A stretch of DNA of 20,612 bases. Origin: Candidatus Bathyarchaeum sp. GTDB taxonomy: Archaea > Thermoproteota > Bathyarchaeia > Bathyarchaeales > Bathyarchaeaceae. This document shows positions 1,220 through 19,754 of the stretch, piece by piece (within the stretch, counting starts at the first letter, position 1; each line of letters starts with the position of its first letter). The translations under genes were made by a program, and so were the position numbers. The notes under the pieces were generated by a model. It was not told the DNA's origin, searched no databases, and was given only the letters and a program-made list of their open reading frames with translations. Location of the stretch: positions 1 through 20,612 of the forward strand of contig JAOZIF010000101.1 in the NCBI GenBank assembly GCA_026014495.1, written 5' to 3'.

Positions 1220-2554
1220 TTATATTAAACCGCTCTTTCGATGGTTTTCTACATAATCTAGGGATCTTCTCACACAGGCATCCATGTTTAGATACGCAAA
1301 CTCTGAAAATCGTCCCAGAAGGTCCACACCAAGAGCATTCAAATAATTTTTTATCAAAGTTATATTTTGTTCATAATCCAAATCATTGATCACATACGCA
1401 AATTCTGTCTTTTTAACAGCTGTAAAACAGATGCTTTTCTTGTCTAAAATTTTGAGAGAATGCAAATCATCTATAACGTGTTCAATTAACCTTGATTCAC
1501 TCATTCTCCATATTTTGTCGCATTTACTGCAAGTAACTTCTGCTAAGACCGAAGATTTGCCTTTTGGAACAACATCTGGACTATAGTTTGATGGAAAACT
1601 AACTCTATGAGGCATCACGTTTTTGTCTGGAATATAAAGCCAAGATAAATTGTTAATCGTATTAGTGTTCAACCCAAGCATTACAGTTATTAACGAAGCA
1701 TATTTCAAATCCCGTCCAGCTTTTCTGATTTCTTTAGGAGTATCTAAGGCGCCAAGAAATTTTTGCACCGGAATTGTTGAAACAATTTTGTCATAAAACT
1801 TCTCTTCAACCCCATTTGAAATAATCCATTTTTCGTTTTCTTTAGTCACACGTGTTACTTCAAAGTTTGTTGTTATCTTATCATCTATTTTTTGTTTCAA
1901 ACTGTTTCCTAGAGCCTGAATTCCATCAACCTTCGGGTAATAAAAAAACAGTTGATGCGTGTATCCTTCAGTTTCGATTCCCAAAGACGACTTCACTATG
2001 TCCGCGACAGGAGGATTAGGGATACGGTCAACCCATTTCAAACTAGTTTTTGATGGCGGATATTTCCATATTTTTTCGTTATATGGAATCAAATATTTTT
2101 CTGAAATTCCTTTACCAAAAGTGTAGTAACACCATTCTTGGAGATTACGCGGTTTTTGCAGTTTATTTTGCGCTTTTTTAAGTGTTGTCTGGAAAAAAGT
2201 ATACAAACATTCAAAGTTTTCTTGTTGGGAAAGGTTTGCTAAACCATTTTCGAACGGATACTTAACATAACGGTTGTTATATAACACTTTGGTGTTACGC
2301 ATTCTTTTCAATTTGTTGTAGCCCAGAAGATCTAGAATGAAATTTTGGGCAATATTATCTTTTGAAAAAATTACATGTGAACCGCAATAATCAAAAGTAA
2401 ATCCGTCTTTCTTCAGACTTCGAATAAGTCCACCACATTCGGCTTCTTTCTCAAGGACTTCTAGACAATACCCTTCTTTGTTCATCAGGTAGCCCAAGGT
2501 AAGACCAGTTAATCCTGCACCAAGAACCGCAGTCGTCCCAGATTCCAAATTCAA
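1220..2554 (-). CDS. FAD-dependent oxidoreductase, UDP-galactopyranose mutase-like (protoporphyrinogen oxidase/amine oxidase fold)
   Basis: N-terminal GAGLTG dinucleotide-binding motif, LEKEAECGGL, GFTFDYCGSHVIFS, PYNEKIW and C-terminal GRFSEFAYLNMD. Located in a nucleotide-sugar locus. TTG start. Confidence 0.7.
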   Translation of the reverse strand: MNLESGTTAVLGAGLTGLTLGYLMNKEGYCLEVLEKEAECGGLIRSLKKDGFTFDYCGSHVIFSKDNIAQNFILDLLGYNKLKRMRNTKVLYNNRYVKYPFENGLANLSQQENFECLYTFFQTTLKKAQNKLQKPRNLQEWCYYTFGKGISEKYLIPYNEKIWKYPPSKTSLKWVDRIPNPPVADIVKSSLGIETEGYTHQLFFYYPKVDGIQALGNSLKQKIDDKITTNFEVTRVTKENEKWIISNGVEEKFYDKIVSTIPVQKFLGALDTPKEIRKAGRDLKYASLITVMLGLNTNTINNLSWLYIPDKNVMPHRVSFPSNYSPDVVPKGKSSVLAEVTCSKCDKIWRMSESRLIEHVIDDLHSLKILDKKSICFTAVKKTEFAYVINDLDYEQNITLIKNYLNALGVDLLGRFSEFAYLNMDACVRRSLDYVENHRKSGLI

Positions 2555-2647: not shown

Positions 2648-3367
2648 TCAAGCAACCTTTCTAACCAGCTTTTGCGCTTGTTTCAAATCTTGTTTGGTGT
2701 CTATTTCTAAACAAATTTCGTTATCAAAGTATAGTGGATGGAGTAAAAATTTATCCGACATTGTGTTGAAAACAGTTTCAGCATAAATTTTGGTTTTTCG
2801 TTGTTTGATAGCATTTTCAATTGCAGTTAACCATTTCAGATAATCAAATTTTGAAAGTTTGTACATAGGAGCTAAGAAATAGGCGTTTTCACCAAAACAA
2901 TCAACACCAATTCGAATTATTGCCCCATTTTTGATTATGGCTTTAAAGTCTTTTTCAGGAGGAGACATAACTGATTTTTTAACTGGTACACAAGTTGGAT
3001 ATTCTGAGTTTACCAAGTTAACAAGCAATTGTTTTTCAAAAAATAAATCACCGTGCATCAAGATGATGTCATCATCTACGAACTCTCTTGTTAACCACAT
3101 TGAATAGATATAGTTAGTTGTTCGATATTTTTGGTTCTTCACGTAAGTGATGCGCACATCAGGATATTGCTTTTTTACATAGCTTTTTATTTGATTACCA
3201 AACGGCCCAGTTGTTAAGATAAAGGAATTAAAGCCACAATCAATTAACATTTCAAGTTGATAACCAAGAAGAGGCTTAGAATCTATATTCAAAAGAGCTT
3301 TAGGTCGATATCTAGTCATCGGGTATAACCGTGTACCCCGTCCAGAATTCAGTATTATTGCTTTCAT
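2648..3367 (-). CDS. LicC/PntC-like nucleotidyltransferase (probable phosphonate cytidylyltransferase)
   Basis: MKAIILNSGRGTRLYPMTRYRPKALL signature, NYIYSMW, HGDL and terminal EIDTKQDL, all typical of phosphocholine/phosphonyl cytidylyltransferases. Starts 13 nt after the Fe-ADH stop, inside the pepM cassette. Confidence 0.8.
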   Translation of the reverse strand: MKAIILNSGRGTRLYPMTRYRPKALLNIDSKPLLGYQLEMLIDCGFNSFILTTGPFGNQIKSYVKKQYPDVRITYVKNQKYRTTNYIYSMWLTREFVDDDIILMHGDLFFEKQLLVNLVNSEYPTCVPVKKSVMSPPEKDFKAIIKNGAIIRIGVDCFGENAYFLAPMYKLSKFDYLKWLTAIENAIKQRKTKIYAETVFNTMSDKFLLHPLYFDNEICLEIDTKQDLKQAQKLVRKVA

Positions 3368-3380
3368 GGGTGATCACAAG

Positions 3381-4511
3381 TTACAAAATTCTACTTAAAA
3401 TTGCTCGTAACTCATCTGGAGTTACTTCACGTGGATTATTCGCGGCTCTGTCGGGCCTAAACCCTTCATTAATTATCAAATCTATATCTTCACGTTTAAT
3501 TCCAACTTCACTTAACAGGGTAGGCAAAGCTACATCTAAAATAAGCTGTTTAACTTTTTGTACAAAAATATCAATCGTATCCGTACCAACCATTTTAGCC
3601 AGACGCAACATTCGTTCTTCCAACACTTCAGAATTAAACTGAATAAAAGAAGGCAATGTAAAAGAACAGGCTAATCCGTGAGGAACATCAAAAAAAACAG
3701 TCAAAGGATAAGAAACCGCGTGAACAATTGTAGTTTTTGTTATACTAATAGCAAGCCCTGAAAAAAGACTAGCAAGTGCCATATTACGTCTAAAGGTTAG
3801 GTCTTCAGGAAAATTACATGCTCCAACAAGATTCTCGAAAACCAACTTGACACCTTCAATTGCAAAAAGATCACTTACAGGGGTCCGATTTTTGGACCAA
3901 TAAGACTCAATGCATTGTGAAAGAGCATCTAATCCAGTGGTTGCAGTAACAAATTTTGGCATAGTTAGAGTAAGATTTGGATCAATTATAGCCACTTCTG
4001 GACGTATGAAATCACTAGTTAATGATAACTTTTTTTTCAAATTAGCATCTACAATTGAAGCATATTGTGTAACTTCGCTTCCAGTCCCAGAAGTAGTGGG
4101 AATTGCTATAACGGGAATTCCCTTGTTAGCTATTTTTGCAACACAATGAAGATAATTTGACAGAAAAACAGTGTTATTTGCCAAGATGGCTATCGCTTTG
4201 GCAAAGTCAATAACACTTCCGCCACCTAACGCGATCACCAAATCTGCTTCCTCTTTTTCCAAAAAAATTTTTCCATCTTCAACATCATCAACGGTGGGGT
4301 TGTGTGTTGCGTTATCATAAACAACAACTGAACGATTTCCCAGTTGATCTAGAATGTTCTTTGTTACACCAGACTGTTTCATGCTTTGTTTTCCTGTGAC
4401 TAGCAGGATTTTTTTGGGATTAAAAGATTCAGTTATTTCAGCGAGTTTTCCAATTGAGTTTACACCAAAGAGTATCTTTGTCGGTAAGTAGCAGCTCCAA
4501 AGATTCATCAT
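3381..4511 (-). CDS. Iron-containing (group III) alcohol dehydrogenase, probable phosphonoacetaldehyde reductase (PhpC/FomC type)
   Basis: ALGGGSVIDFAK, IPTTSGTGSEVT, DALSQCIESYWS, HAVSYPLT and VPHG motifs. Directly downstream of pepM. The ORF track starts at 4529, but ATG 4511 or 4508 is more likely. Confidence 0.85.
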   Translation of the reverse strand: MMNLWSCYLPTKILFGVNSIGKLAEITESFNPKKILLVTGKQSMKQSGVTKNILDQLGNRSVVVYDNATHNPTVDDVEDGKIFLEKEEADLVIALGGGSVIDFAKAIAILANNTVFLSNYLHCVAKIANKGIPVIAIPTTSGTGSEVTQYASIVDANLKKKLSLTSDFIRPEVAIIDPNLTLTMPKFVTATTGLDALSQCIESYWSKNRTPVSDLFAIEGVKLVFENLVGACNFPEDLTFRRNMALASLFSGLAISITKTTIVHAVSYPLTVFFDVPHGLACSFTLPSFIQFNSEVLEERMLRLAKMVGTDTIDIFVQKVKQLILDVALPTLLSEVGIKREDIDLIINEGFRPDRAANNPREVTPDELRAILSRIL

Positions 4512-4532
4512 GTGTATCGAAGAGTTCAATGA

Positions 4533-6254
4533 TTAATATACCACCTTTTTTGCCATTTCATAGTCTTTCTTATTATGAATTTCCATCCAGCCCTTGTTAG
4601 TCTCGATGTAATTAACAGTAAATCCCCTATCGATCATTTCTTGAATCATATCAACTATTGAAGCTTTACCAAAACTTTCGCTTTCATGAAATCTTCCGCT
4701 ATGATTCTTTAAACAATCGGAATACAATTCTTTTAGATTTTTTGCACCATATTCAGAAAATTTGGCTATACCAATAAATTCATGAGTTGCAATATCTTTT
4801 TTGATTTTCTTGCCGATGTATGTTACCTCTTTTTCAAGAGCAATAGATGGTTGCCGATAGTACCCACCTTCTTGCTTACCAATTAACAAGTCGAGCTCTT
4901 TGTCGATTTCATGCCGATGATAAGGATATGACGCATCAGCAATTAGAACTATATCCGCCGTGCTCTTAAGAAGACTGACGATAATAGATTCGTCAAACAA
5001 AATATCAGAAAATATTAAGAAAAATCCATGATCCATTTCGGCTTGAGCAGAAAACAGGGAGTGAAGTGAACCTGTAGTGTAATCAGGTGCATCATAATAT
5101 TTTACCCCATTGTAACTAAATTTCTCTTTGGCATAACCTCGTACAACTGTTACATCAGCTATTCCACAATGTCTTAACACATCAAGCTGACGCTGCATAA
5201 CCGTTTTTCCGTTTACGTCAAGCATTGCCGAGGGCATACATTCAATAATTGTTTCTTTGGGTTTTCCAGCAGCAGGAATAATTACTTTAGCTTTGCTTTT
5301 GTCGAGTAATAGTTGGAGGTCTCTTTCCTTTATTTTTTCAAAACCAACCATATGCATTATGGTGGTTATTGGAGTGCAGTATGGTTCACTTTCGAAGGCA
5401 CGCCCTTTAAGCAGAATATTTTTGCAGACAGCTTGCATCGATTTTACTGAGGCACGCAACAGGTGATTGGCGTATATGACAATTTTGAACCCATGTTCAC
5501 AAAGTTCTTCTTCCTTGATAGTGTTATAAGTTGTAGGCACACAAATGAGTGGTCTATAAAAACCGATTTTTTCTAATAGCTTCGAATACTCCTTAGCAAA
5601 TTTAAGTACACGCACGGGGTCAGTTTCTCTCGAGTGAATTAGTATTCCATCTGCTCCTGCTTGCAAATATTTTTCTGCACGTAACAACGCATCTTCAACA
5701 TCGAATCCTGCAATCAGGCTCTCTATCCGGGCGAAAATCATGAAATCTTTTGAGAGCAAAGCTTCTTTTCCAAGCCTAATTTTATTTGCAAATACTTCTG
5801 GGGCCTCAAGATTTTGTATTGAACCATCATCCAGACTATTACGTTTAGGATATGTTTTATCTTCTATTACAACAGCTGAAACGCCTAAAAGTTCGAGTCT
5901 ATTTAGAAAATACTCGAAATTAGCGATTTCTCCTCCAGTATCACCATCAACTATCAAGGGCTTGTCAGTAACATTCATTATTCGTTCTATGGTACTAAGT
6001 CTTGAGTCGGGACTAACAAGCTCAATATCTGGAAGTCCTTTTGATGTTGAATCAGTAAAACCACTGCCCCATAAAGCGTCAAATTCTAAAAAGTTGTTCT
6101 CGCCACCGTTTCCTAACTCAAGTTTTACATTATTTGCAACTAATGCGCTGATTCCATCATGAACCTCAATTGCACGTACAAGTTGTTTGTTTTCAAGTAG
6201 AGTTCTCAGTTTGCCGCGTAATTCTTCAGGTGAATGTCGCCGTCTTGCACTCAT
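4533..6254 (-). CDS. pepM: Phosphoenolpyruvate mutase fused to a C-terminal nucleotidyltransferase-like domain
   Basis: PepM-diagnostic EDKxxxxxNS motif (IEDKTYPKRNS), plus EVHDGISAL, DSTSKGLPD, IVDGDTGG, ARIESLIAG, AGADGILIHSR and IYANHLLRAS. The C-terminal ~250 aa (VIIPAAG...RGY...FSDILF...GWMEIHNKKDY) has an NTP-transferase fold. ATG 6254 (MSARR) avoids overlap with the upstream gene. The ORF track gives 6293. Confidence 0.95.
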   Translation of the reverse strand: MSARRRHSPEELRGKLRTLLENKQLVRAIEVHDGISALVANNVKLELGNGGENNFLEFDALWGSGFTDSTSKGLPDIELVSPDSRLSTIERIMNVTDKPLIVDGDTGGEIANFEYFLNRLELLGVSAVVIEDKTYPKRNSLDDGSIQNLEAPEVFANKIRLGKEALLSKDFMIFARIESLIAGFDVEDALLRAEKYLQAGADGILIHSRETDPVRVLKFAKEYSKLLEKIGFYRPLICVPTTYNTIKEEELCEHGFKIVIYANHLLRASVKSMQAVCKNILLKGRAFESEPYCTPITTIMHMVGFEKIKERDLQLLLDKSKAKVIIPAAGKPKETIIECMPSAMLDVNGKTVMQRQLDVLRHCGIADVTVVRGYAKEKFSYNGVKYYDAPDYTTGSLHSLFSAQAEMDHGFFLIFSDILFDESIIVSLLKSTADIVLIADASYPYHRHEIDKELDLLIGKQEGGYYRQPSIALEKEVTYIGKKIKKDIATHEFIGIAKFSEYGAKNLKELYSDCLKNHSGRFHESESFGKASIVDMIQEMIDRGFTVNYIETNKGWMEIHNKKDYEMAKKVVY

Positions 6255-6276
6255 TGATAGAACATCCAAAATAAGG

Positions 6277-6843
6277 TTATCTAGGCAATGCAATTAAAGC
6301 ATTGACAAACCTTTTTGTAATTTCAGTCGGCTCAATTGAAACCCGTGGTACATCCACACGAACATTATCAACTTTGACATGTAAAAACGAGGGGCCTTCT
6401 GAACTAAGGGCTTCAACAAAGTGTTTCTTTAATGTAGTAACAGAATTGACATATTTGCTGTTTTTAATACCAGAAGAACGTGCTATAATGTGAAGCTCGG
6501 TTATGGAACTTGATGTTTGTTGCCCACCAGTGGATTCATGGCATTCGTTATCCAGAACTACGAATATGAAGTTTTTAGGAGATGTTTTCCCAATCGTTGC
6601 AAGAGTACCAAGAGACATTAGAGTGTTTCCGTCACCAGCAAGAATCACGATTTTAGCGTTTGGTTTTGCCAAACTTACACCTAATCCTATTGCAGGAGCC
6701 AAACCCATCGACCCTAGCATATAGAAGTTCTTTTCTTGATCTTTTATTGTAAAAAGTTCCCTGCTTATCATTCCATTACACGAAATGACGAATTCGTTGG
6801 TCAGGCAGGTGGCAATTACTTTGATGGCATCGTATCTTCTCAT
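6277..6843 (-). CDS. Phosphonopyruvate decarboxylase, beta (TPP-binding) subunit; ComE-like
   Basis: NFYMLGSMG, TPP-binding GDG...N motif (GDGNTLMSLG...VVLDNECHESTGGQ) and GPSFLHVKV. ATGA overlap with the alpha subunit. Adjacent to pepM. Confidence 0.88.
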   Translation of the reverse strand: MRRYDAIKVIATCLTNEFVISCNGMISRELFTIKDQEKNFYMLGSMGLAPAIGLGVSLAKPNAKIVILAGDGNTLMSLGTLATIGKTSPKNFIFVVLDNECHESTGGQQTSSSITELHIIARSSGIKNSKYVNSVTTLKKHFVEALSSEGPSFLHVKVDNVRVDVPRVSIEPTEITKRFVNALIALPR

Positions 6844-7328
6844 GTGATTACCCCCTTTTTTAGGATTAATGCAACAGGAGTTTTTTGTTTACACATTTTT
6901 TTTGAAAGCTGGTTCAACTGCTCAGTTAATCGTGTAGTTTCGGCTATTTCAGCAGGAATTTTCATGATATCTAAAAAGTTCATCATGCATTTTCCCATAT
7001 ACAAGTGCTCAGGAGCATCTTTCCCTTCAAAGCCACGCCATGAAATTAGCAGCAACATAGGAATCTTGTATAACAAAGCAAGAGAAGTAAGGGCATTCAC
7101 AGACTGCCCTAATCCAGAGTTCTGCATAAGAACAACAGGCTGTTTTCCAGCCATATATGCACCAACTGCGAGGCCAATTGCTTCATCTTCGCGGGTTGCT
7201 GAAACGTAACTAAAAACATTGTCTTCAGACATGTATTTGATTATTGAGCTTAAAATGGAACAAGGTACACCAGTATAGAAATCGAAACCTCGTGTTTTCA
7301 AAAGCTGACAAAAATGTTCATGATTCAT
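6840..7328 (-). CDS. Phosphonopyruvate decarboxylase, alpha (Pyr-domain) subunit; ComD-like
   Basis: FYTGVPCSIL, ATREDEAIGLAVGAYMAG, LMQNSGLG, ISWRG and PEHLYMG motifs of the Ppd/ComD N-terminal domain. Confidence 0.88.
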   Translation of the reverse strand: MNHEHFCQLLKTRGFDFYTGVPCSILSSIIKYMSEDNVFSYVSATREDEAIGLAVGAYMAGKQPVVLMQNSGLGQSVNALTSLALLYKIPMLLLISWRGFEGKDAPEHLYMGKCMMNFLDIMKIPAEIAETTRLTEQLNQLSKKMCKQKTPVALILKKGVIT

Positions 7329-7362
7329 TTTATTACGCCCTTTAAGTTGTCACCCAATATTT

Positions 7363-8175
7363 TTATTCCAATCGAGTTTTTAAAGCAATATACTGAGTTA
7401 CTAGAACAACAAAAGAATATGGTACAAGAAATAAATAAGGTAACAAGAATAGATGCATCATTGTTACTTGGTGGTTCCACAAAATGAAGCTAGGAACAAA
7501 CAAGTCTACCAGAGCCAAGAATAAAAACAGAATCACCATATATCCGCTAAAAGTGATCACCGAAGCAATTCTAGCAATCAATTTCCCGATTTGAATAGTA
7601 TATCGGTTAACTAACAAAGAACTACCATTAAAACGGTTTTCAACCTGATCGTTAGTAAGACCAGATTCCGTCTTTGACACATTTTTAGAGGATTTATACA
7701 ATGTCCAACAGTAATTAGCCATTATAAATTCGCAAACTATCAGAACCAGACAATCTATGAAACCTAGAAACAGCACAGATGTCTGACTGAAAACGTTAAA
7801 CAAATAAAAGGCTACACCAAAAGGTACCATAGCCACGATTAGATAATCAAAAGTGATTTCTAAGAAAAAACCAGTTGGGGTTTTCATGTTTTTATATCTG
7901 GCGACTTCCCCGTCAACATGGTCAAATACGCTCCAAAGGAAAAGGACAACAGCCGCAACAAAGATATCAACAGGCGTTTGCGCAATAAGCAACAACAAAA
8001 CACTAAGTATCCCAATACCAAAATCAATCACAGTAATGTGATTAGGAGTAACAGAATCCCACTTCTGTAGAATTATCCAACTCAAACGAGCAGATATTGG
8101 CCTAGCAATATATTTAGCGTATAACCTATCGTCGTTTTTAACAACCTTTTTCACGTATTCTGAGTAGCTTTCCAT
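7363..8175 (-). CDS. CDP-alcohol phosphotransferase family membrane protein
   Basis: RPIS...VTPNHIT N-terminal element and the signature DHVDGEVARx8GFFLEITFD (DxxDGxxAR...GxxxD/ExxxD). About six hydrophobic segments. Confidence 0.88.
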   Translation of the reverse strand: MESYSEYVKKVVKNDDRLYAKYIARPISARLSWIILQKWDSVTPNHITVIDFGIGILSVLLLLIAQTPVDIFVAAVVLFLWSVFDHVDGEVARYKNMKTPTGFFLEITFDYLIVAMVPFGVAFYLFNVFSQTSVLFLGFIDCLVLIVCEFIMANYCWTLYKSSKNVSKTESGLTNDQVENRFNGSSLLVNRYTIQIGKLIARIASVITFSGYMVILFLFLALVDLFVPSFILWNHQVTMMHLFLLPYLFLVPYSFVVLVTQYIALKTRLE

Positions 8176-8336: not shown

Positions 8337-9425
8337 TCAATTTAGTATTCTCCGAAATATCTGTTCAACATTATCAACAGTCTTATCCCATGTAAACTGG
8401 TTTGCAGTTTTTGGTCCTTCTTTTCTGAAATATTCACTTAAGTGCTCATCTTTGAGCAAACGAATTATTGCATCTGCAAGCGACTTGGGACTTCGTGGAG
8501 GAACCACCAAAGCATTTTTCCCATCAAAGGCATAGTCTTCAGTTCCAAATCTTGTTGTAACAGTAGGACTTCCACAGGCCATAGCCTCTAATGGTGGCAA
8601 AGGAAAACTTTCAAACCAAGATGGACAAATGGTAACATCAGCTGTGCGGTATAAGTCTGCTAACTCTTCATCACTTGGGTTTGTATAGAAGATGTGTGGA
8701 AACGGTTCGTGTAATTGAATTGGTTTTCGGCCATAAACCCAAAATTCAACATTATCCATGTGTTTGTTTACAAGTTTCATTGCGTGGATTGCATCGTTAA
8801 AACCCTTCCAAGGCAACTGTCGCCCCCCAAAACACAGAACTATTCGTTTGTCACTTTTTTTGTTAACACCTCGTGGAAAGAAGATTTTATGGTTAATTGC
8901 AGGGTTTACTACAGGTAAATCATAACCATATCGTTCTTTCATGTTGTTATGCAACCAAATACTATTTACCAATCTTTTGATTGGGAGATTATATGCCTCA
9001 TCACACACAGCTTTAGCCGCTGGGTCAGAAGATATTACTAACTCGTCATGCTGCATATAATGAAACGGAACACCCATATTTGACTCAAAAATAGGAAAAA
9101 CATCCCCATACGAGTGTGCTATGTTCAAATCACATTCGGGAAGCCATTTAGAAACAGATGTTCTAATTGCAGCATATCCATCTAAATCGTAAGCAGAAAA
9201 CTTCCGTAACATACGGCAAAGCCCTAGTACAAACAGGTTCCTTTTTGCAAACTTTGCCTGATTAAAAGCAATTTTTTTGTCCAACATGAATGGTGAACGG
9301 CTTGGCAACATTGAGGTAATAGTCACGTCATGACCTTTTGCGACTAAACCATTCAGAACGTTAGTGATTACTCTGAAGCCCCCATTGCCCTCGTCAAAAG
9401 TTAAAGTCAGATAATGTATGTTCAT
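8337..9425 (-). CDS. Glycosyltransferase family 4 (GT-B)
   Basis: GGFRVI N-terminal loop, KGFNDAIHA and the EX7E motif ESFPLPPLEAMACG. Confidence 0.9.
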   Translation of the reverse strand: MNIHYLTLTFDEGNGGFRVITNVLNGLVAKGHDVTITSMLPSRSPFMLDKKIAFNQAKFAKRNLFVLGLCRMLRKFSAYDLDGYAAIRTSVSKWLPECDLNIAHSYGDVFPIFESNMGVPFHYMQHDELVISSDPAAKAVCDEAYNLPIKRLVNSIWLHNNMKERYGYDLPVVNPAINHKIFFPRGVNKKSDKRIVLCFGGRQLPWKGFNDAIHAMKLVNKHMDNVEFWVYGRKPIQLHEPFPHIFYTNPSDEELADLYRTADVTICPSWFESFPLPPLEAMACGSPTVTTRFGTEDYAFDGKNALVVPPRSPKSLADAIIRLLKDEHLSEYFRKEGPKTANQFTWDKTVDNVEQIFRRILN

Positions 9426-9426
9426 T

Positions 9427-12240
9427 TCATTTACTCACTTCGAGTTTGTCAATTAGTAGAGACATGTCCCCAGTTACATCGGTAAATTGAATGCTTATAT
9501 GTGTAACAGCAGACAGATCAGGATTGCCTCGAACAGTCACAAAAGCCATAAGAGGAATTTTGATAAATCGCCAACCATCCCAATCAAAAGTAAAACTAAT
9601 TTTTGTTGAATCATCAGGAGTTGGAGCCATCATATATATTATAAATTTTGCTGCAGAACCGTCGCCATGAAGGTAGAAACTGATGTAATTTTCTGAGCTT
9701 AAATCTAAGGCATCCTCAAAAGTTCTGTAAAAACCAACTCGACCATTCGTTCCGTTGCTAATTCGGGCTTCTGTAGAATAGTTTCCACTAATTTTATTAT
9801 CTCTTTGAGAAGAGAGAACGGGTATTCCTAAAGTCCCATCTAATTCTCCAAAAGTGGACCAAAAGGTTGCTTGCTCATCATCAGCGATTAACGTTGGATT
9901 TTGAATGTCGTACTCGTCAACGTTGTAGGTGTACTTGTATACTGTACCAGAGATTGTTGCTAAATCAAATTTAAAAAAGTAAAACTTGTAATCAGTTCCT
10001 ATAACGGTATAGTCTGCCGCGAATTCTTTCAGTTTTTCAAAATTATCAAGCACCAAAGAGCTCCCTTTAACATACCAATCTTCGGTAACGAAAAAGGCAA
10101 TAGTGGAATTGGTTGCAACCATACTTTTTGTGATTAAAAAGGGGTCGGGGTTAAGAAGTAATAAACTTGTTGAATCACGTACAGTTCCAGCAGCAAGAGC
10201 TAAATTAGGTTCATCATCAACATATCGGTAACCCAAATTTCCTGCAACAAGTTTAGGAATAAATCCATTGGCTAAAATACAGTAATTTTCTGTTCCTGAT
10301 GATGAATTTATAAGTTGAACAATTTTCATCTCATCAGCGGATACAGTTCGCCATGTTGGGCGACCAGGTTCAGCAGGAACATTTTTGTCAAATAACGGAA
10401 TGGAATAAGCCAGATAAAAAGACGATAACATTCCAAATATGCTTAAAGTCAACAAAATAAATGCAAATATTTTTTTCTGTGAAAACAGTATTGGAAGTTT
10501 TTTTGCCAAATTTAATTTGAAGTTGTTAATTTTATCCAAGGAAGCATTGTTTATGTCAACAAAGAACCGGTCTACTGTTGAGAATATATACAAAATGAAA
10601 GCAGCAAAAGGAATCAGGGAAATGTCAACAACTCTAGCAAACCTGTGAGTCCCATAAGGAAGATTTGTTATTCCACTTACAACGATGAACCAACTAAACA
10701 AGAAAACCAGCACTGTAAAAAAAAGCCACATACCAGTTCGCTTTTTCGCATCATTTTTGATCAATTTTATTGAACAAAATCCGCCAAACAACAAAACGTA
10801 CCTAATCCAATTAAAGCTCTCAGAACAAATTGAATCAGCTGTCAACTCGTTAGTTAACCAATGCGTCGATAACCAAAAGTCTTTGATAGATTCTAGACTT
10901 GGAAGTTGTATTTGAAATGGGTTGTTATTAAAGAGCAAACCTTGCACAACTGTAAATTGTATTGGAAACAGTAATAACCCTAAAAATATAACAAGCAATA
11001 ATAGAATATAACGACCATTTTTCATACGCCAGATTTTAAAGTGAAAAGGCAGGGCAAGTAAATCGGCAATCAATGCAAAAGTTCCAGAAAATGGATGAAT
11101 AAGAACAGTAGCGATAGTTGTCAAACTAACTAAGAATAACCCACGATAGGGCGTATTATCGGAAATAAAGAAAGTTATGAAAAAAAGATTGACATAAAGG
11201 AATATAACACCAACCATCTCTGCTACTGACACACTAATAAGCCAAAAAGTTGGAAATACCATAAACCCAATTAAACCAAGTAAGAAAACGTGACTATTGT
11301 TAACACTAAAGAACAGTTTTTTCAAGAAATGATATGTCACCAAAGGAATGAAAATACTTGCAAACAGAGGACTCCATAACCAAGTAACGTTTTTCATCAC
11401 AGTTAAATTGAAACTTGTTCCTTCAAACACAGCAATTGTCGCAAGAAACGATTGATACCCACTGTAAGGGATTACAAGACTGGAACCAGTTGGGTCTCGA
11501 CCACCCAGTTCAAATATGACTCTAACACCCGACAGCAAGCCCCAAACGTCTGGGTCAAAAGATATTTTTACAACTAAAACAAGCAAACCAAAATACAAAA
11601 ATGCAATTAAGAAACTCGAAATAATGGATATCTCAAAACAAAACGCTTTGTTTTGAATTCTTTTTTGAAGGAAAACAAAGGCAAAAATGTTCACACCCAT
11701 GAACAGCCAGAAATATGACGGCAAAACTTCCCAAACAGAAAAGAACATCGCGTCAGTTCGTGAGCTTATAATTATAACTAATAAGCTTAGAAAACTAGCA
11801 CCAAAAATTATTACTGCACTAAAATCAACAGCGGTCCAAACATCTTTTGGCGAGATAGAAATAGATTCATTCTCTGTATTGCGGTTATAACATGTTTTGA
11901 TTTTTTGTGCTAATATAAGAAACAAGGGTAAAAACAGCATAGGTAATATTGCATGCACACGGTCGAACATTTTAAGAATTGTAATCAAACCTTCAAAAGC
12001 TATTATCCAGCAGACCACAATAAATGCTCCAAAAAGGAGTTGACTAATTTTAGGTTCTTCTTTGAAAAATAGGTTTCCAGACCATAAGCCACAGCATATT
12101 ATGTATGCAAGTAGTGTAAGTGTGCCCAAATAAGGCGATGGAAAACAGAAAAGGCTCAAAGCAAGTGGAAGTAACAGTATGACAGATGCTATAGGGTATT
12201 TCAAGCGCAAAATAGTGCGTGAGTCGAATTCAGTCAACAT
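9427..12240 (-). CDS. Large polytopic membrane protein, possibly GT-C fold, with a C-terminal CBM11/CIA30-like beta-sandwich domain
   Basis: About 16 hydrophobic segments by eye in the first ~610 aa. Acidic loop FDPDVWG, intramembrane IHP and HRF motifs. The soluble tail LDLSSENYISFYLHGDGS...FDWDGWRFIKIPL..F...PDLSAVTHISIQF resembles CBM11-type modules. The ORF is certain, the function is not. Confidence 0.55.
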   Translation of the reverse strand: MLTEFDSRTILRLKYPIASVILLLPLALSLFCFPSPYLGTLTLLAYIICCGLWSGNLFFKEEPKISQLLFGAFIVVCWIIAFEGLITILKMFDRVHAILPMLFLPLFLILAQKIKTCYNRNTENESISISPKDVWTAVDFSAVIIFGASFLSLLVIIISSRTDAMFFSVWEVLPSYFWLFMGVNIFAFVFLQKRIQNKAFCFEISIISSFLIAFLYFGLLVLVVKISFDPDVWGLLSGVRVIFELGGRDPTGSSLVIPYSGYQSFLATIAVFEGTSFNLTVMKNVTWLWSPLFASIFIPLVTYHFLKKLFFSVNNSHVFLLGLIGFMVFPTFWLISVSVAEMVGVIFLYVNLFFITFFISDNTPYRGLFLVSLTTIATVLIHPFSGTFALIADLLALPFHFKIWRMKNGRYILLLLVIFLGLLLFPIQFTVVQGLLFNNNPFQIQLPSLESIKDFWLSTHWLTNELTADSICSESFNWIRYVLLFGGFCSIKLIKNDAKKRTGMWLFFTVLVFLFSWFIVVSGITNLPYGTHRFARVVDISLIPFAAFILYIFSTVDRFFVDINNASLDKINNFKLNLAKKLPILFSQKKIFAFILLTLSIFGMLSSFYLAYSIPLFDKNVPAEPGRPTWRTVSADEMKIVQLINSSSGTENYCILANGFIPKLVAGNLGYRYVDDEPNLALAAGTVRDSTSLLLLNPDPFLITKSMVATNSTIAFFVTEDWYVKGSSLVLDNFEKLKEFAADYTVIGTDYKFYFFKFDLATISGTVYKYTYNVDEYDIQNPTLIADDEQATFWSTFGELDGTLGIPVLSSQRDNKISGNYSTEARISNGTNGRVGFYRTFEDALDLSSENYISFYLHGDGSAAKFIIYMMAPTPDDSTKISFTFDWDGWRFIKIPLMAFVTVRGNPDLSAVTHISIQFTDVTGDMSLLIDKLEVSK

Positions 12241-12350: not shown

Positions 12351-13268
12351 CTAAATCTTTCCAGACTTGTTTAGGGTTACGAAAGACTTGGGCAAAACTG
12401 CTTGCCCGTAGCTGTTTGTTGTGAAATCATAGAACCCTTTTAACATTGCCCGTGCTAAGATGATGTTTCTATACTTTGCCAAGTAATTGAAAAGTCTAAA
12501 ACCAAAACGGGGAATCCATAAAACAAAGAATAGTGGGTTGAGGTGTTTCCTTGCGAAGAGGAGCTCATTTCTTGTCGAGTAGTATAAAACAGACGGATTA
12601 ACTCGCCCACTAAATGAATATGATACTTTGTGGTATGTTTTAGCAGATGGAACGTGCAGTATTTTGTATCCAGCCACTCTTACACGGTGACATAAATCAG
12701 CCTCATCAAAATAAAGAAAAAATTTTGTGTCCATTAAACCTATTTTCTGGATAACACTTTTTTTGATTAGAATACAAGCTCCAGGGATTAAGTTGACTTC
12801 TTCGGGTTTTCGAATGTTAATTAATGGTGTATAGCCAACACCCAAGTAAAAGTTGTAATTGCCATATTTTGTATAAAGGCTGTCTGGTTTTTCAAAAAAG
12901 AATAGTCTGGGACTTGTTATTCCAATTTTTGGGTCAGTTTCAGACGCAGCAACTAACTCATTTAAGAAAGAGGGGTCAACATCCATATCATCATTTAGAA
13001 TTAAAATATAATCACTTTGCAGTTTTTCAAGGGCATAATGTATCCCTACATTATTACCGCCCGTGTATCCCAAGTTCTGTGAAGTTTCTAGCAATACAAC
13101 AGAAGGAAAATGTGAGTTAACCATGGATGCAGTTCCATCGGTTGAGTTGTTGTCGACAACAACGATTTTGTAGTTTGAGTAGCTGATATTAAGAACAGAC
13201 TCTATACAACTTTGCAAAACTTTCTTTTTGTTATAAGTAACAATAATGACCGAAACAGATGGCTCCAT
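12351..13268 (-). CDS. Glycosyltransferase family 2 (WbbL/GlfT1-like)
   Basis: VSVIIVTYN, VVVDNNSTDG, NLGYTGGNN, LILNDDMDV (DxD), GACILI and YFDEADLCHR. Its ATG directly follows the TAA of the upstream GT4. Confidence 0.9.
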   Translation of the reverse strand: MEPSVSVIIVTYNKKKVLQSCIESVLNISYSNYKIVVVDNNSTDGTASMVNSHFPSVVLLETSQNLGYTGGNNVGIHYALEKLQSDYILILNDDMDVDPSFLNELVAASETDPKIGITSPRLFFFEKPDSLYTKYGNYNFYLGVGYTPLINIRKPEEVNLIPGACILIKKSVIQKIGLMDTKFFLYFDEADLCHRVRVAGYKILHVPSAKTYHKVSYSFSGRVNPSVLYYSTRNELLFARKHLNPLFFVLWIPRFGFRLFNYLAKYRNIILARAMLKGFYDFTTNSYGQAVLPKSFVTLNKSGKI

Positions 13269-14453
13269 TTAATTGCTCACACTTAGATTTTTAGAAAGGT
13301 TGCCGCCATTGTGGTAAAAATCAGAATATAACGTAGAATAAAAATTCAAAAGCCGCTGCCTCATTTTATCCCACCCATAAAGTGCATCATACGCAGTTCT
13401 GCCGTTAAAACCGAGTTCTTTACATAACGACGGCTGATTTTTTAAACGCAATACAGCATTTTTTACATCATCAGTGTTTTGGGCATCAACAACAAGCCCA
13501 CAGTTATGCTTTACAACTTTGATAGCAGTTGATGTGCCTTTGTTAACAATTATGGGTTTGGCACACATTAGTGCTTCCAGAAATTTGCTTCCACAAATAT
13601 ATTTTTGTACCAGTGGAACAGGGTCGCGTAACGAAAACAATAAATCGGCTTGACTGGACAGTTTCAACACTTCGCTGTAAGGAACACGCCCAAGATACTT
13701 AACTTTGTTCGGCATCGTGCGAGCCTTAGTTTTGATTTCATCCATCAGGTCCCCATCGCCAACGAATACAACAGTTACGCCGTCAAAGGAATCAATCACG
13801 TTCAACATAGAATCAAGGTTCAAGTTTCGGTTTCTACTAAGGTAACCTGCATAGAAAACTACAAAGTTATCATGAGTTTTCGGAGCAATAGACACGTTCT
13901 CAACAATTGAAGATGGCGAATCATAGATAACTGTTAGATTAGGGTTTGGAATACCACCAAATTCGTCTACTTGTAATTCATCAACTAATACAACACCATT
14001 TGCGAGAGTGATACATAATTTCTCGACATGAATGCCAATGAACCGTAACAATTGAGGCAAAACAGTCAATTGGTCGATATACGTGTCTTCAATATCGTAA
14101 ATTAGCAGTTTTCTTTTTAGTTTTGTAGCAATGATAGCAGGCATAATAGATGGAAAATTAACGACATGAACAACGTCGTAGTCCATTCGTAGCAACCACA
14201 AAAACTCAAACACCCACCACAAGGGAAGCGCAAACACACTAGCAATACCAGTAGATGCTTTTTTACACAATATTTTAGATTGATATTGCTTTTTCTCAAA
14301 TTGCTTATGAGAATCTGAAGACGAGCTATCATCTCGGTTCCACCCCAAAAAAGTGACATGATAATTGTCACTTAGAAAAATTGACAATAATTTGAGCAAA
14401 CGTGGGTCATTTTCTAACGGAAAAAAATTTTTAACAAAAACTAATTTCTTCAT
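13269..14453 (-). CDS. Glycosyltransferase family 4 (GT-B)
   Basis: DPRLLK N-terminal motif, VFYAGYL, FVGDG, YLGRVPYSEV and SKFLEALMCAKPII. Confidence 0.85.
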   Translation of the reverse strand: MKKLVFVKNFFPLENDPRLLKLLSIFLSDNYHVTFLGWNRDDSSSSDSHKQFEKKQYQSKILCKKASTGIASVFALPLWWVFEFLWLLRMDYDVVHVVNFPSIMPAIIATKLKRKLLIYDIEDTYIDQLTVLPQLLRFIGIHVEKLCITLANGVVLVDELQVDEFGGIPNPNLTVIYDSPSSIVENVSIAPKTHDNFVVFYAGYLSRNRNLNLDSMLNVIDSFDGVTVVFVGDGDLMDEIKTKARTMPNKVKYLGRVPYSEVLKLSSQADLLFSLRDPVPLVQKYICGSKFLEALMCAKPIIVNKGTSTAIKVVKHNCGLVVDAQNTDDVKNAVLRLKNQPSLCKELGFNGRTAYDALYGWDKMRQRLLNFYSTLYSDFYHNGGNLSKNLSVSN

Positions 14454-14621: not shown

Positions 14622-15854
14622 TTACTCCAATATCAAACGTTTTTTGACCATTTGACTCAAAACAGAAGATAGCCTATGAGAGATCTTCTGTTCACAATGA
14701 TTGCTTTTCACGTAGAGGTACCCATTTTTTCCAACACTTTTTGCAAAGTCATCGTGCTTTAATATTTTAATGGTATTCTTTGCAAACTGATTAATTTCTG
14801 AGTATATTATGCCGTGTTCTGGACCAAAAAGTAAGGAAACCATTCCTGGCAGAGGTGTAGCCAAAACTGGTTTAGCACAAGCAAGATATTGTATTACTTT
14901 TCCAGGGATAATATCCTGAGTGGTTGAATTAATTAAGAATGGGTTGATACAAACATCCGCTATGTTGATGAACTGAGGCATCAATTCAAACGGTTCAAAC
15001 CCAGTAAGAATTACATTTTCTTTGAGGTTTAGTTCAGTAACAAGTTCCTTGAGTTTATTCAACAGAATGCCGCCTCCAACTATTACCAATTTCACGTTAG
15101 GAACTTCTTTCACAACTTTTGGGAACTGTTTGATATACAAATCTAGACCTGAGAACTCAAATAAAGTTCCGATGAAAACTACGATTTTATGTTCTTTTGT
15201 TAGTCCTAATCTTTGCTTGAGTTTTTGAGTACCAACACCAGAATTGAAAGCATTTGTATCAACACAAAAGGGAAGCATTTCTACGTTGTCTTTTTCAGCA
15301 CCCAATCGTATCACATATTCTGAAAGTTTTGGAGATAACGTCAAAATTTTATCTACGTGTTTGTATACCCATTTTTCAAGAGAAAAAGTGATTGGTCTTA
15401 AAGCCTTAGTGGGAACCAACATGTGTAAAGTGTCTATTGATCTAAAAAGTACAGGAACATTATATTTCCCAGCAAGTTTTACAGTCTGATAACCATTGGT
15501 AGGAACTGAATACAAAATTATTATGTCAATTTCCTTTTCGTTGATAACCCGTTCGATTTCAAAGTAGTGAGTAAACAACGCAGTTGCTCGGTCAACAAAA
15601 GGTGTTTTAATAAAACCCGGTCGAATCAAAGTTGTTGAAGACCCATTAGTTGTTCTACTAATGTTATCAAAGACCTTTGTTTTTAAAGAACCAATATCAA
15701 GTACATTTTCTTTACTCCATTCATGCTCAAAATCAATAACATACACGTTGTGCCCTAAACTAGACAACATCTCTGACCAGCTATGAATCTCAAAAACAAC
15801 TTTTTTGAGCAAATCAACTTCATGAATAAAAAGAATATTCAAGAGGCAACTCAC
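14622..15854 (-). CDS. Glycosyltransferase family 4 (GT-B)
   Basis: VVFIGTLFEFSGLD, IVGGG, ILTGFEPF, ADVCINPF and PGKVIQYLACAKPVLAT. GTGA overlap with the radical SAM gene. Confidence 0.87.
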   Translation of the reverse strand: MSCLLNILFIHEVDLLKKVVFEIHSWSEMLSSLGHNVYVIDFEHEWSKENVLDIGSLKTKVFDNISRTTNGSSTTLIRPGFIKTPFVDRATALFTHYFEIERVINEKEIDIIILYSVPTNGYQTVKLAGKYNVPVLFRSIDTLHMLVPTKALRPITFSLEKWVYKHVDKILTLSPKLSEYVIRLGAEKDNVEMLPFCVDTNAFNSGVGTQKLKQRLGLTKEHKIVVFIGTLFEFSGLDLYIKQFPKVVKEVPNVKLVIVGGGILLNKLKELVTELNLKENVILTGFEPFELMPQFINIADVCINPFLINSTTQDIIPGKVIQYLACAKPVLATPLPGMVSLLFGPEHGIIYSEINQFAKNTIKILKHDDFAKSVGKNGYLYVKSNHCEQKISHRLSSVLSQMVKKRLILE

Positions 15855-17248
15855 TTAACCAGATCAATAAGCATACGTAAACCTGCAACATTTGTCTTCA
15901 TGTCCGTTATTGAACCCAATTTTTTTATCCGCTTCCACAGATATGCGCCCCTAAAGTAAAAAGAAGAATAAGCTTTTTTGTTCCATTTCCTTAATTCTTC
16001 TGGGCTTAAGGTTGCTGTTTTGAATGTTGGGTAATCCATAGACTTCAAATCGGCATAAACATACTTTTTCCACTCAGTAGGCACATAACCATCTTTTACT
16101 GCGAGGTCATAAAGGTCAGTTCCAGGATATGGAGTGGTCAAAGAAAACTGAACGAAATCAGGATCAATCTTTTTAGCAAATTCAATTGTGTCCCTGATAG
16201 TGTTGGGTGTTTCTCCGGGAGCACCGATCATGAAATATGCCACAGTGTCAATTCCTGCGGCTTTTGTATTTTTGAAAGCATCAACTATCTGGTTAAGAGT
16301 TATATCTTTTCTAAGGTTGTTAAGAATTGTTTGGTTACCAGATTCGATGCCATATTCAATCATGTAACAACCAGATTCTTTCATAAGATTTAGCAGGCGT
16401 GAATTTACTAAATTAACTCTAGTTTCACATGTCCAAGGAATGTCTAAACCAAGTTCTTTCATTTTATTGCAAAGAGCAACAATTCGTTTCTTGTCTAAGG
16501 TGAATACATCGTCATAGAATTTTATTTCTTTAATACCAAATTTTTCAATTAACAACTGAATCTCAGCGATCACGTAATCTGCACTGTTTCCACAATATTT
16601 CCTGCCAAAAACAGATTTTGAACAAAAAATACACCGGTAAGGACATCCTCGACTAGTAATAATTGGCATAGCAGGTGATCGGCGCCCAAAAGGAGGGTGT
16701 AAACGGTATTTATCCATTAATAATAAATCAAAAGCAGGATAAGGTAAAGAATCAAGATCCAAAATGGGCATTCTTTCTGGGTTACTTTTGATAATGTTTC
16801 CCGACCGATAAGTTATTCCAGAAACATCCTTAAGACCAGACATCTGATTTGCACCGAAAACTTTGACCAACTCAAGCATGGTCTGTTCACCCTCTCCACG
16901 CACAACTACATCTATTGCAGAAGTGTTACGCAATGTCTCTTCAGGAAGTATCGTGCCATGAGCACCACCAAGAACAACCGGAATATCACTGTTAGATGCT
17001 TTCACTATCTCAGCTGTCTTAATTGCCGAATCAATCTCAGGAGTAAGAGCGGTTATTCCAACAACATCAGGTTGTTCTTTTGCTACTGTTGATGAAATCA
17101 CCTTTTCAGACAAACCCAAAGCAGGCAAATCCAATACATCTATGTCGTATCCGTTTTTCAACAAAACTGCTCCAATCATAGCCAAACCAAGAGGCGGCTG
17201 CGGATATTTTGTCGAGTGGAAAGGATTAATTAGTAAAATTTTCTGCAT
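15851..17248 (-). CDS. Cobalamin-binding (class B) radical SAM protein, probable methyltransferase
   Basis: N-terminal B12-binding domain (PPLGLAMIGAVL, PDVVGIT, VVLGGAHGT, VVRGEGE), CxxxCxxC motif (SRGCPYRCIFC), FYDDVF, GIESGNQ, YFMIGAPGET and PYPGT. ATG 17248 is the likely start. The ORF track gives TTG 17260. Confidence 0.92.
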   Translation of the reverse strand: MQKILLINPFHSTKYPQPPLGLAMIGAVLLKNGYDIDVLDLPALGLSEKVISSTVAKEQPDVVGITALTPEIDSAIKTAEIVKASNSDIPVVLGGAHGTILPEETLRNTSAIDVVVRGEGEQTMLELVKVFGANQMSGLKDVSGITYRSGNIIKSNPERMPILDLDSLPYPAFDLLLMDKYRLHPPFGRRSPAMPIITSRGCPYRCIFCSKSVFGRKYCGNSADYVIAEIQLLIEKFGIKEIKFYDDVFTLDKKRIVALCNKMKELGLDIPWTCETRVNLVNSRLLNLMKESGCYMIEYGIESGNQTILNNLRKDITLNQIVDAFKNTKAAGIDTVAYFMIGAPGETPNTIRDTIEFAKKIDPDFVQFSLTTPYPGTDLYDLAVKDGYVPTEWKKYVYADLKSMDYPTFKTATLSPEELRKWNKKAYSSFYFRGAYLWKRIKKLGSITDMKTNVAGLRMLIDLVK

Positions 17249-17385
17249 TAGTTCAACCAAAAAGAGGCACTAAATTACTTTTGTTTAACACAATCTGCGA
17301 TAAGCGCCTACAAAAAACTAGAAGCTTTGTAAGCATTATCCTAAACTTAATAAAATTGGGAGCTACAACAACAAACAACATGTTA

Positions 17386-19436: not shown

Positions 19437-19754
19437 TCATTTAGATACATTTTTAGTAATTCTTGTAATTTTGAAAATCACTGTACCACCGTCGGTGTAT
19501 GGTTGCCCTGGATCAACACATTGAATGTAAGCATGCTCTTTATCTATTGACTTTGTCAAACCTAGTTTTACTGGATCAGCACCAGATTCTAAAATCAACA
19601 CATAATGCAACAACGATGAAAGTGCGTGTGTACAAAGAGCATCAGTTCTATGCAACAAAATTTTTGGGTCATCAATAATTATTTTGTCTCCAACGTTGTG
19701 AACTGGGCACTTGCCTTTAATCGCACATACTTCAATTTCTAACATTCGTAACAC
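19437..19754 (-). CDS. TIGR04076-like small cysteine-containing protein of unknown function
   Basis: Pattern I.V..IKG.CP..VGDKI...LC.HAL...CVDPG...GGTVIFKI matches my recollection of TIGR04076. The start may be ATG 19745. Confidence 0.7.
   Translation of the reverse strand: MLRMLEIEVCAIKGKCPVHNVGDKIIIDDPKILLHRTDALCTHALSSLLHYVLILESGADPVKLGLTKSIDKEHAYIQCVDPGQPYTDGGTVIFKITRITKNVSK

Follow-up and report, generated by a model that had tools for sequence, protein, structure and literature searches.

Gene content and organisation of the locus

The window examined here is a stretch of 20,612 nucleotides from Candidatus Bathyarchaeum sp. and comprises the entire 20.6-kb contig JAOZIF010000101.1 of a 2.19-Mb metagenome-assembled genome (MAG) that is 93% complete. 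Between positions 2648 and 8175, it carries six co-oriented genes on the minus strand, which are proposed below to make, activate and transfer 2-hydroxyethylphosphonate (HEP). Neighbouring genes within this set lie at most 34 nt apart or overlap, and the minus strand carries all 18 open reading frames (ORFs) of the window. The six genes, with the fusion of phosphoenolpyruvate (PEP) mutase (PepM) and a nucleotidyltransferase (NT) domain given as a whole and by domain, are as follows:

7363..8175, minus strand: CDP-alcohol (CDP-OH) phosphotransferase, 270 aa, multi-pass membrane protein (PF01066); candidate phosphonyl transferase
6840..7328, minus strand: predicted alpha subunit of phosphonopyruvate decarboxylase (Ppd alpha; TPP_enzyme_N), 162 aa; TIGR03297 model positions 1-155
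6277..6843, minus strand: predicted Ppd beta (TPP_enzyme_C), 188 aa; TIGR03297 model positions 171-358
4533-6293, minus strand: whole PepM-NT fusion ORF; likely true start at 6254
5343..6209, minus strand: predicted PEP mutase domain of the 586-aa fusion (TIGR02320 above cut-off; motif; tree)
4536..5294, minus strand: C-terminal NTP_transf_3 domain of the PepM fusion, with a degenerate nucleotide-binding loop
3381..4529, minus strand: group III iron-type alcohol dehydrogenase (ADH), 382 aa (Fe-ADH, ADH_Fe_C); candidate phosphonoacetaldehyde reductase
2648..3367, minus strand: stand-alone LicC/PntC-type cytidylyltransferase, 239 aa, with an intact GRGTR-x8-PK loop at 3299-3343

From the 7363-8175 gene onward, the first junction is a gap of 34 nt, the next two are overlaps of 4 and 17 nt, and the last two are gaps of 3 and 13 nt. 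The longer overlap, between PpdB and PepM, turns into a 22-nt gap when translation is started at the ATG at PepM residue 14, as in the public 573-aa gene call.

Searches with Pfam and NCBIfam models assigned the six genes to CDP-OH_P_transf, TPP_enzyme_N, TPP_enzyme_C, PEP_mutase plus NTP_transf_3, Fe-ADH and NTP_transferase, respectively. The positions and families of six contiguous, co-oriented genes with gaps of about 35 nt or less, as put forward in an earlier reading made from the letters of the DNA (hereafter, the sequence-only reading), were thereby confirmed. The same models bore out the flanks described there, namely five glycosyltransferases (two GT2 and three GT4), two short-chain dehydrogenase/reductase (SDR) family epimerase/dehydratases and rmlA, the latter in its long form (467 bits; cut-off 320). 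A membrane protein of 937 aa, a flavoprotein, a B12-binding radical SAM enzyme and a member of TIGR04076 are also encoded in the flanks.

The contig, which had been judged to be probably archaeal, does belong to the Bathyarchaeia, and the nearest PepM-NT fusions stem from Bathyarchaeia MAGs. Its source is a sediment Bathyarchaeia MAG; sediment as the habitat was read from the best-matching sequencing run, a sediment metagenome. Recent horizontal transfer was considered on the basis of composition; the GC content of the cassette (0.36-0.385) is in line with that of the flanks and gave no signal of it.

In the synteny comparison, two Bathyarchaeia MAGs and one archaeon of another phylum had PepM-NT, Ppd, ADH and NT genes clustered around PepM, and a third Bathyarchaeia MAG had them spread over two separate loci. 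Because this set recurs in other archaeal genomes, the grouping of the genes in the window is not due to chance.

Assignment of the PEP mutase

The PepM domain scored 327.7-330.1 bits on TIGR02320, above the equivalog cut-off of 319.55 bits, with the models of its sister families far behind (phosphonopyruvate hydrolase, 145 bits; methylisocitrate lyase, 97 bits; carboxyphosphoenolpyruvate mutase, 43 bits). PepM residues 143-152 (nt 5838-5867) read EDKTYPKRNS and conform with the EDKxxxxxNS motif, which is common to 117 of the 119 closest clusters; in the solved phosphonopyruvate hydrolase, the Asn position is occupied by Thr.

A tree of 143 PepM domains was calculated from representatives, related loci and Nitrosopumilus-type genes, with four motif-less paralogues of the same phylum as the outgroup. 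As this was a quick search with SH-aLRT (Shimodaira-Hasegawa-like approximate likelihood ratio test) support only, well-supported branches alone were used. The window PepM joined three Bathyarchaeia PepMs with a support of 98, inside the motif-bearing clade, which was split from the motif-less Thermoproteota paralogues at a support of 100; the Nitrosopumilus-type PepMs formed a separate clade (support 99). The PepM call of the sequence-only reading hence passed by HMM (hidden Markov model) cut-off, motif and phylogeny, with none of the outcomes seen that it had named as speaking against a PepM, and the family comparison leaves us almost certain that the assignment is genuine.

In six relatives of the PepM-NT fusion (P0010, P0026, P0028, P0031, P0058, P0107), Cys replaces the motif Asn (EDKKYPKRCS, EDNxFPKRCS), and one of these Cys-motif proteins is 53% identical to the window fusion. 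Such variants may represent a different activity inside the PepM clade.

Assignment of the split phosphonopyruvate decarboxylase

On TIGR03297, the single-chain Ppd model with a cut-off of 312.5 bits, the alpha half scored 149-150 bits and the beta half 181-184.5 bits; each half alone is below the cut-off, and their sum, a rough measure, is 334 bits and thus above it. The best PDB matches were RhiE for alpha (9IZ3_A, 2.3e-28) and RhiF for beta (9IZ3_B, 6.9e-38), and the thiamine-diphosphate motif GDG-x26-N is present in Ppd beta. The two genes are the sole such pair in the genome.

A sulfopyruvate decarboxylase (ComDE) serving coenzyme M synthesis, with the grouping next to PepM a coincidence, would have to be considered because the ComD and ComE models score the halves about equally well with the Ppd model (146.6 and 191.3 bits, respectively), so that HMMs alone are not decisive. 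Both values, however, are under the respective cut-offs (147.95 and 221.5 bits), the best solved relatives are RhiE and RhiF, which form a characterised heteromeric Ppd, and the pair overlaps or abuts PepM here and at every related locus, as would suit a PepM, which needs a coupled decarboxylase. We regard a ComDE as hardly credible and consider the pair to be, very probably, a phosphonopyruvate decarboxylase.

The alcohol dehydrogenase and the predicted end product

Both the Fe-ADH and the ADH_Fe_C Pfam domains were above their cut-offs in the ADH, and the GGGS nucleotide motif is present. Its orthologues adjoin PepM or Ppd in L002, L004, L005, L014, L020, L024, L038, L111 and L112, and it is this conserved synteny with PepM and Ppd that points to the enzyme being a phosphonoacetaldehyde reductase.

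For alternative fates of the phosphonate, the genome was searched for a 2-aminoethylphosphonate (AEP) transaminase and for MpnS/HepD. No true AEP transaminase was found in the genome, where the best match to TIGR03301 reached 166 bits (cut-off 360.8) and is located on another contig, and none (PhnW/AepZ) was found in the window. As the MpnS query, a protein from a Nitrosopumilus-type genome was used, which matches the solved MpnS, PDB 6B9S, at 1.5e-197. With this query, no MpnS/HepD match at E<=0.01 was obtained in the 93% complete genome, nor was MpnS found in three related PepM-positive genomes; as the positive control, the same query finds MpnS in two genomes, G568 and G610. With neither MpnS/HepD nor a true AEP transaminase found, HEP is likely to be the end product, and we hold this with fairly high confidence. 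Such an end point fits an anaerobe that is unable to run the O2-dependent MpnS.

The two nucleotidyltransferase domains and CMP activation

The stand-alone NT found its first PDB match in LicC (1JYK, 8.4e-17) and its fourth in Treponema PntC (6PD1, 1.2e-10). Orthologues with 44-57% identity stand beside ADH or Ppd in five loci (L002, L004, L005, L014, G202). PntC is known to need a GXG(T/S)R-x4-8-PK loop, with exchange of Arg15 or Lys25 for Ala leaving less than 10% activity (PMC6697681).

In the NT domain fused to PepM, GKPKE...PS at 5229-5267 replaces GXG(T/S)R...PK, whereby both key residues are lost, and the Pfam match begins only at profile position 17. The GXG(T/S)R element was found in none of 162 C-terminal PepM-NT fusions (0/44 distant and 0/118 close ones), whereas the stand-alone NTs of the same loci all have it. 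The lysine of PK is kept in most relatives of 50-54% identity and is lost in the window fusion and its nearest relatives. No paper testing a Ppm-fused PF12804 domain was found.

The families of a PepM-NTP-transferase fusion and a second, LicC/PntC-like enzyme were correctly named in the sequence-only reading; the fused domain itself turned out to be without the catalytic, pyrophosphate-binding signature. Since it has no residues of the kind PntC requires, CMP activation probably falls to the stand-alone NT, with HEP as the predicted substrate. For the fused domain, a structural or regulatory role is more likely than a catalytic one.

The CDP-alcohol phosphotransferase as a candidate for the transfer step

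The product of the 7363-8175 gene scored 42 bits on PF01066 (gathering cut-off 22). Its CDP-OH signature was located at 7846-7923 and reads D85xxD88GxxAR...G102xxxE106xxxD110, in which D1, D2, G, A, R, G and D4, the presumed catalytic base, are kept. The best PDB match was AF2299 (7.5e-10), and a mere seven close relatives were found among 5.8 billion proteins.

Eighty metagenome loci were fetched via distant similarity to the window CDP-OH transferase. Five of them (L014, L020, L024, L036, L038) have Ppd together with ADH or a transaminase within 10 kb; PepM is also present in four of the five, and L020 breaks off inside PpdB. A CDP-OH transferase near PepM was likewise seen in L004 (Bathyarchaeia) and L005. 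An NT gene belongs to the same neighbourhood in L005, L014, L020, L024, L036 and L038. Several of the phosphonate-linked CDP-OH loci are Wzx/Wzy glycan loci. The signature was readable in the PepM-linked CDP-OH transferases of L014, L020, L024, L036 and L004 and is non-canonical in all of them; conversely, none of 40 transferases with a canonical signature is PepM-linked.

Many environmental CDP-OH transferases (L009-L086) have His or Asn at D4, and many of these directly follow an intact NT in glycan loci. The four PepM-linked metagenome examples that were scored all fall in this His/Asn-at-D4 set. Among the individual loci, L024 (6137-12827) combines a Fom1-type fusion (N-terminal PF01467 plus PepM) with Ppd, ADH, CDP-OH and a TagF-like glycerophosphotransferase and adjoins a Wzy-like gene. 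The CDP-OH homologue of L008 (7344-8016) gives two separate alignments (residues 1-92 at 52%, residues 8-126 at 29%), as might come from two tandem copies or from a disrupted gene.

Proposed pathway and alternative explanations

In the proposed scheme, PepM would convert PEP to phosphonopyruvate, and the two-subunit decarboxylase of the RhiEF/ComDE type would pull this unfavourable equilibrium forward by forming phosphonoacetaldehyde, which the Fe-ADH would reduce to HEP. The stand-alone LicC/PntC-type enzyme would then form CMP-HEP from HEP and CTP, and at the membrane CDP-OH transferase, the hydroxyl group of a membrane-bound acceptor would displace CMP. The acceptor would most likely be a lipid-linked glycan, assembled by the GT4, GT2 and GT-C-like proteins that are encoded nearby; failing that, it would be a lipid. 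The product would be an envelope decoration with phosphonoester-linked HEP. Taken as a whole, the six genes probably form an operon-like cassette that makes HEP, activates it with CMP and attaches it to an envelope glycan or lipid.

Every enzyme family assigned in the sequence-only reading held up in the tests. Its claim of a complete synthesis, activation and transfer cassette was supported as far as synthesis and activation are concerned; transfer by the CDP-OH enzyme is deduced from gene context alone and is the weakest link of the scheme, for which we see about even chances.

Several observations weigh against the proposed cassette. The ADH scored 275 bits on TIGR03405, the model for the phosphonate ADH, which is below the cut-off of 423.7 bits although this was the top NCBIfam match, and the models of ErcA (264 bits) and lactaldehyde reductase (261 bits) follow closely. 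Its metal ligands are D201, Q205, H270 and H284, with Gln instead of His as the second ligand (DALSQ, residues 201-205); this Gln recurs in six of ten further phosphonate loci (L002, L004, L005, L038 and the Nitrosopumilus-type L111 and L112), the remaining four (L014, L020, L024 and G202) having His at this position. In the CDP-OH transferase, the third signature Asp (D3), which bridges the two metals, as known from PgsA1, is replaced by Glu106. Glu occupies D3 in all eight members of the clade, and the function is probably retained because the change from Asp to Glu is conservative. The CDP-OH gene is, moreover, as rare as PepM in the class sample, and its close clade is tied above all to a block of the 937-aa protein and GT4 (L007, L008), beside which it always stands; the contigs of L007 and L008, the only two close relatives in the metagenome scan, end before phosphonate genes could appear. 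No close homologue was found in three other PepM-positive archaeal genomes (G202, G401, G402), and in a weak comparison by length, the longest contigs of the close CDP-OH clusters matched those of none of the 120 best PepM-NT clusters.

The association with the 937-aa protein block and the missing homologues in the three genomes, together with the many metagenome loci in which NT and CDP-OH are paired without PepM, favour a CDP-OH transferase that stands outside the phosphonate pathway. It would then be an enzyme of the glycan module using an ordinary CDP-alcohol or CDP-archaeol, and CMP-HEP would go to another transferase, or HEP to a soluble product. The gene, however, shares its strand with ppd-alpha and precedes it by a mere 34 nt, its PepM-linked counterparts are all non-canonical, as described above, and the window has no other candidate transferase (LicD, TagF, sulfatase), which in our view makes this separation improbable. 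Equally to be weighed is a phosphonolipid, for which the CDP-OH transferase would place the HEP-phosphonyl group as a head group on a lipid alcohol of the archaeol type, in the manner of choline/ethanolamine phosphotransferases. Characterised members of the CDP-OH family do make lipids or use lipid acceptors, choline/ethanolamine phosphotransferases are among the PDB matches, and bacterial clusters with Ppm-PntC, PntC and CDP-OH have been read as phosphonolipid clusters by Li and Horsman (PMC8942020). On the other hand, the gene is found among glycosyltransferases and Wzx/Wzy-type or GT-C-like genes here and in L007, L008, L014, L024 and L036, and not among lipid-synthesis genes, and the solved protein closest to it, AF2299, belongs to the DIPP-synthase type, whose substrates are soluble, so we judge a lipid head group to be unlikely.

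The sequence-only reading had also raised the idea of a Fom3-like reaction, in which the B12-radical SAM enzyme would C-methylate CMP-HEP and the decoration would be 2-hydroxypropylphosphonate. Fom3 does act on CMP-HEP according to the literature, and B12-radical SAM genes are found 0.5-10 kb from phosphonate genes in L036, L112 and G202. Those enzymes, however, are not orthologous to the one in the window (26-34% identity), whose gene is 7.7 kb away with five other genes between. It matches the HpnJ (269 bits) and BchE models best, the closest solved protein is the sugar diol-dehydratase AprD4, and it has 13 paralogues in the genome, of which the nearest (58% and 40%) are in glycosyltransferase loci without phosphonate genes. 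These affinities speak against the idea and make it very unlikely.

Returning to the transfer of HEP from CMP-HEP to a lipid-linked glycan, the altered signatures, with Glu at D3 or with His or Asn at D4, might mark the long-sought HEP transferases; we offer this as a tentative suggestion that is somewhat more doubtful than not.

Distribution of the fusion among archaea

Among species-representative genomes, the nearest PepM-NT fusions are those of three Bathyarchaeia MAGs (72-73% identity), with one of an 'uncultured archaeon' at 52%. Within the class of the window genome, PepM was above the cut-off in 2 of 401 sampled genomes, both of one genus. The rest of the phylum yielded only stand-alone PepMs near the cut-off, in one Nitrosopumilus-like family that carries MpnS. 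In the phylum of L005, PepM was present in 23 of 301 genomes, 18 of them (about 6%) with the same fusion of 566-585 aa. The NCBI names on relatives of 50-54% identity are Lokiarchaeota, Odinarchaeota and Promethearchaeota, from which this phylum is probably Asgard.

Close homologues are labelled 'phosphoenolpyruvate mutase [Candidatus Bathyarchaeota archaeon]' at NCBI, and likewise in Asgard MAGs. Among the papers searched, none was found to link phosphonate synthesis to Bathyarchaeia or Asgard archaea.

Genome G202 belongs to the same genus as the window genome, and its pathway is split between PepM-NT on one contig (L003, contig C1) and NT-ADH and PpdA-PpdB on another (L094, contig C10). There, PepM-NT stands behind an rml operon with rmlA, a dTDP-sugar isomerase, an SDR and an RmlD-type reductase.

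Neighbouring glycan genes

The following neighbours of the cassette were annotated:

1220-2554, minus strand: flavoprotein (Amino_oxidase/NAD_binding_8, PRK07208-like) with weak UDP-galactopyranose-mutase similarity
8337-9425, minus strand: GT4 (Pfam)
9427-12240, minus strand: 937-aa GT-C-like multi-pass membrane protein; no Pfam family
12351-13268, minus strand: GT2 (Pfam)
13269-14453, minus strand: GT4 (Pfam)
14622-15854, minus strand: GT4 (Pfam)
15851-17260, minus strand: B12-binding radical SAM enzyme, HpnJ/AprD4-like
19437-19754, minus strand: TIGR04076 Cys-rich protein, 105 aa (67 bits, cut-off 33)

Look-alikes of the 937-aa protein are DUF6541, DUF6311, DUF2206 and PMT_2 clusters, mostly from Bathyarchaeota (Atlas), which suggests a GT-C-type transferase or polymerase. 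The run of GT4 (13269-14453), GT2, 937-aa protein, GT4 (8337-9425) and CDP-OH is kept in L007 with 48-70% identity (61% for the 937-aa protein and 70% for the 8337-9425 GT4); in L008, the 937-aa protein (49%) is followed by the CDP-OH gene. An orthologue of the flavoprotein (61%) is placed between GT4 and the CDP-OH gene in L007, and its position inside this glycan run implies that the flavoprotein belongs to the glycan module. The gene of the TIGR04076 protein lies between those of a GT2 and an SDR.

The nearest paralogues of the radical SAM enzyme are found on contigs C70 (58%) and C49 (40%), among glycosyltransferases and SDRs, and a sugar-modifying role is the more likely one for this enzyme.

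Significance and comparison with known systems

Phosphonates make up a sizeable pool of reduced phosphorus, and the known archaeal producers are aerobic marine Nitrosopumilus. The present locus extends the route of PepM, Ppd, ADH and cytidylyltransferase to anaerobic sediment archaea, where, with no oxygen-dependent MpnS found, it would end at HEP. It also supplies a candidate for the step by which a CMP-activated phosphonate is transferred to the envelope, and it draws attention to a very common PepM-fused NT domain that is without the residues required in PntC and may not be the activating enzyme. If the altered-signature CDP-OH transferases do act on CMP-HEP, abundant anaerobes of the sediment, Bathyarchaeia and probable Asgard archaea, would be supplying anoxic sediments with HEP-type phosphonates by a route that needs no oxygen and has so far gone unrecognised; the ecological weight of this is uncertain because the trait is rare in the class, as counted above.

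Several parts of the system have precedents. The fusion of Ppm to PF12804, the presence of another NT close by and the use of cytidylyl activation to tailor the cell surface were reported by Rice et al. (2019; PMC6697681). Li and Horsman (2022; PMC8942020), whose analysis included 12 archaeal neighbourhoods, saw HEP in 8.5% of neighbourhoods and described a large group in bacteria in which CDP-OH lipid genes accompany a Ppm-PntC fusion and an additional PntC. In marine surveys, pepM, ppd and phpC were found together in Thaumarchaeota beside glycosyltransferases, and a phosphonate cluster of Methanocorpusculum has been noted in the literature.

With the Pnt pathway and the 'Burkholderiales_CDP-OH' group (PMC6697681, PMC8942020), the window shares the Ppm-PF12804 fusion, the stand-alone PntC-type NT, Ppd, CDP-OH and cytidylyl activation. 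The 'Burkholderiales_CDP-OH' clusters, however, make AEP by means of a transaminase and have an alpha-ketoglutarate oxygenase, with lipids as the predicted products, whereas the window has an Fe-ADH in place of the transaminase, HEP as the predicted product, a split Ppd and a glycan locus, in an anaerobic archaeon. The Nitrosopumilus maritimus-type cluster (L111/L112) is likewise archaeal and has an ADH with the same Asp-x3-Gln variant of the metal site, a PpdA/PpdB pair split in the same way and of the same sizes (162 and 184 aa), and an NT that is a homologue of the domain fused to PepM in the window; it differs in a stand-alone PepM (298 aa), an intact NT (GSGKR...PK), MpnS with three sulfatases and the lack of a CDP-OH transferase.

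The early fosfomycin pathway (Fom1, Fom2, FomC, Fom3) takes the same course from PEP via phosphonopyruvate, phosphonoacetaldehyde and HEP to CMP-HEP. There, the cytidylyltransferase of Fom1 is an N-terminal PF01467 domain, whereas the fused domain of the window is C-terminal, of PF12804 and degenerate; FomD and Fom4 are missing here, a Fom3 is not supported, and the setting is a glycan locus and not a cluster for an antibiotic. RhiEF of Bacillus subtilis (9IZ3; PMC12141560) is a two-subunit, ComDE-homologous Ppd as well, but it feeds an aldolase in rhizocticin synthesis, whereas the window Ppd would feed the ADH. The exopolysaccharide of Stackebrandtia nassauensis, as cited in PMC8942020, comes close with an HEP decoration of a glycan made via PepM, Ppd and a PhpC-like ADH; its producer is an actinobacterium whose transferase is, as far as that citation goes, not known as a CDP-OH enzyme, and the likeness is one of description.

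We conclude that the type of pathway is already catalogued in bacteria, in Nitrosopumilus and in other archaea, and that what is new in the window is the lineage, the combination of HEP with a split Ppd and a degenerate fusion, and the Glu variant of the CDP-OH transferase.

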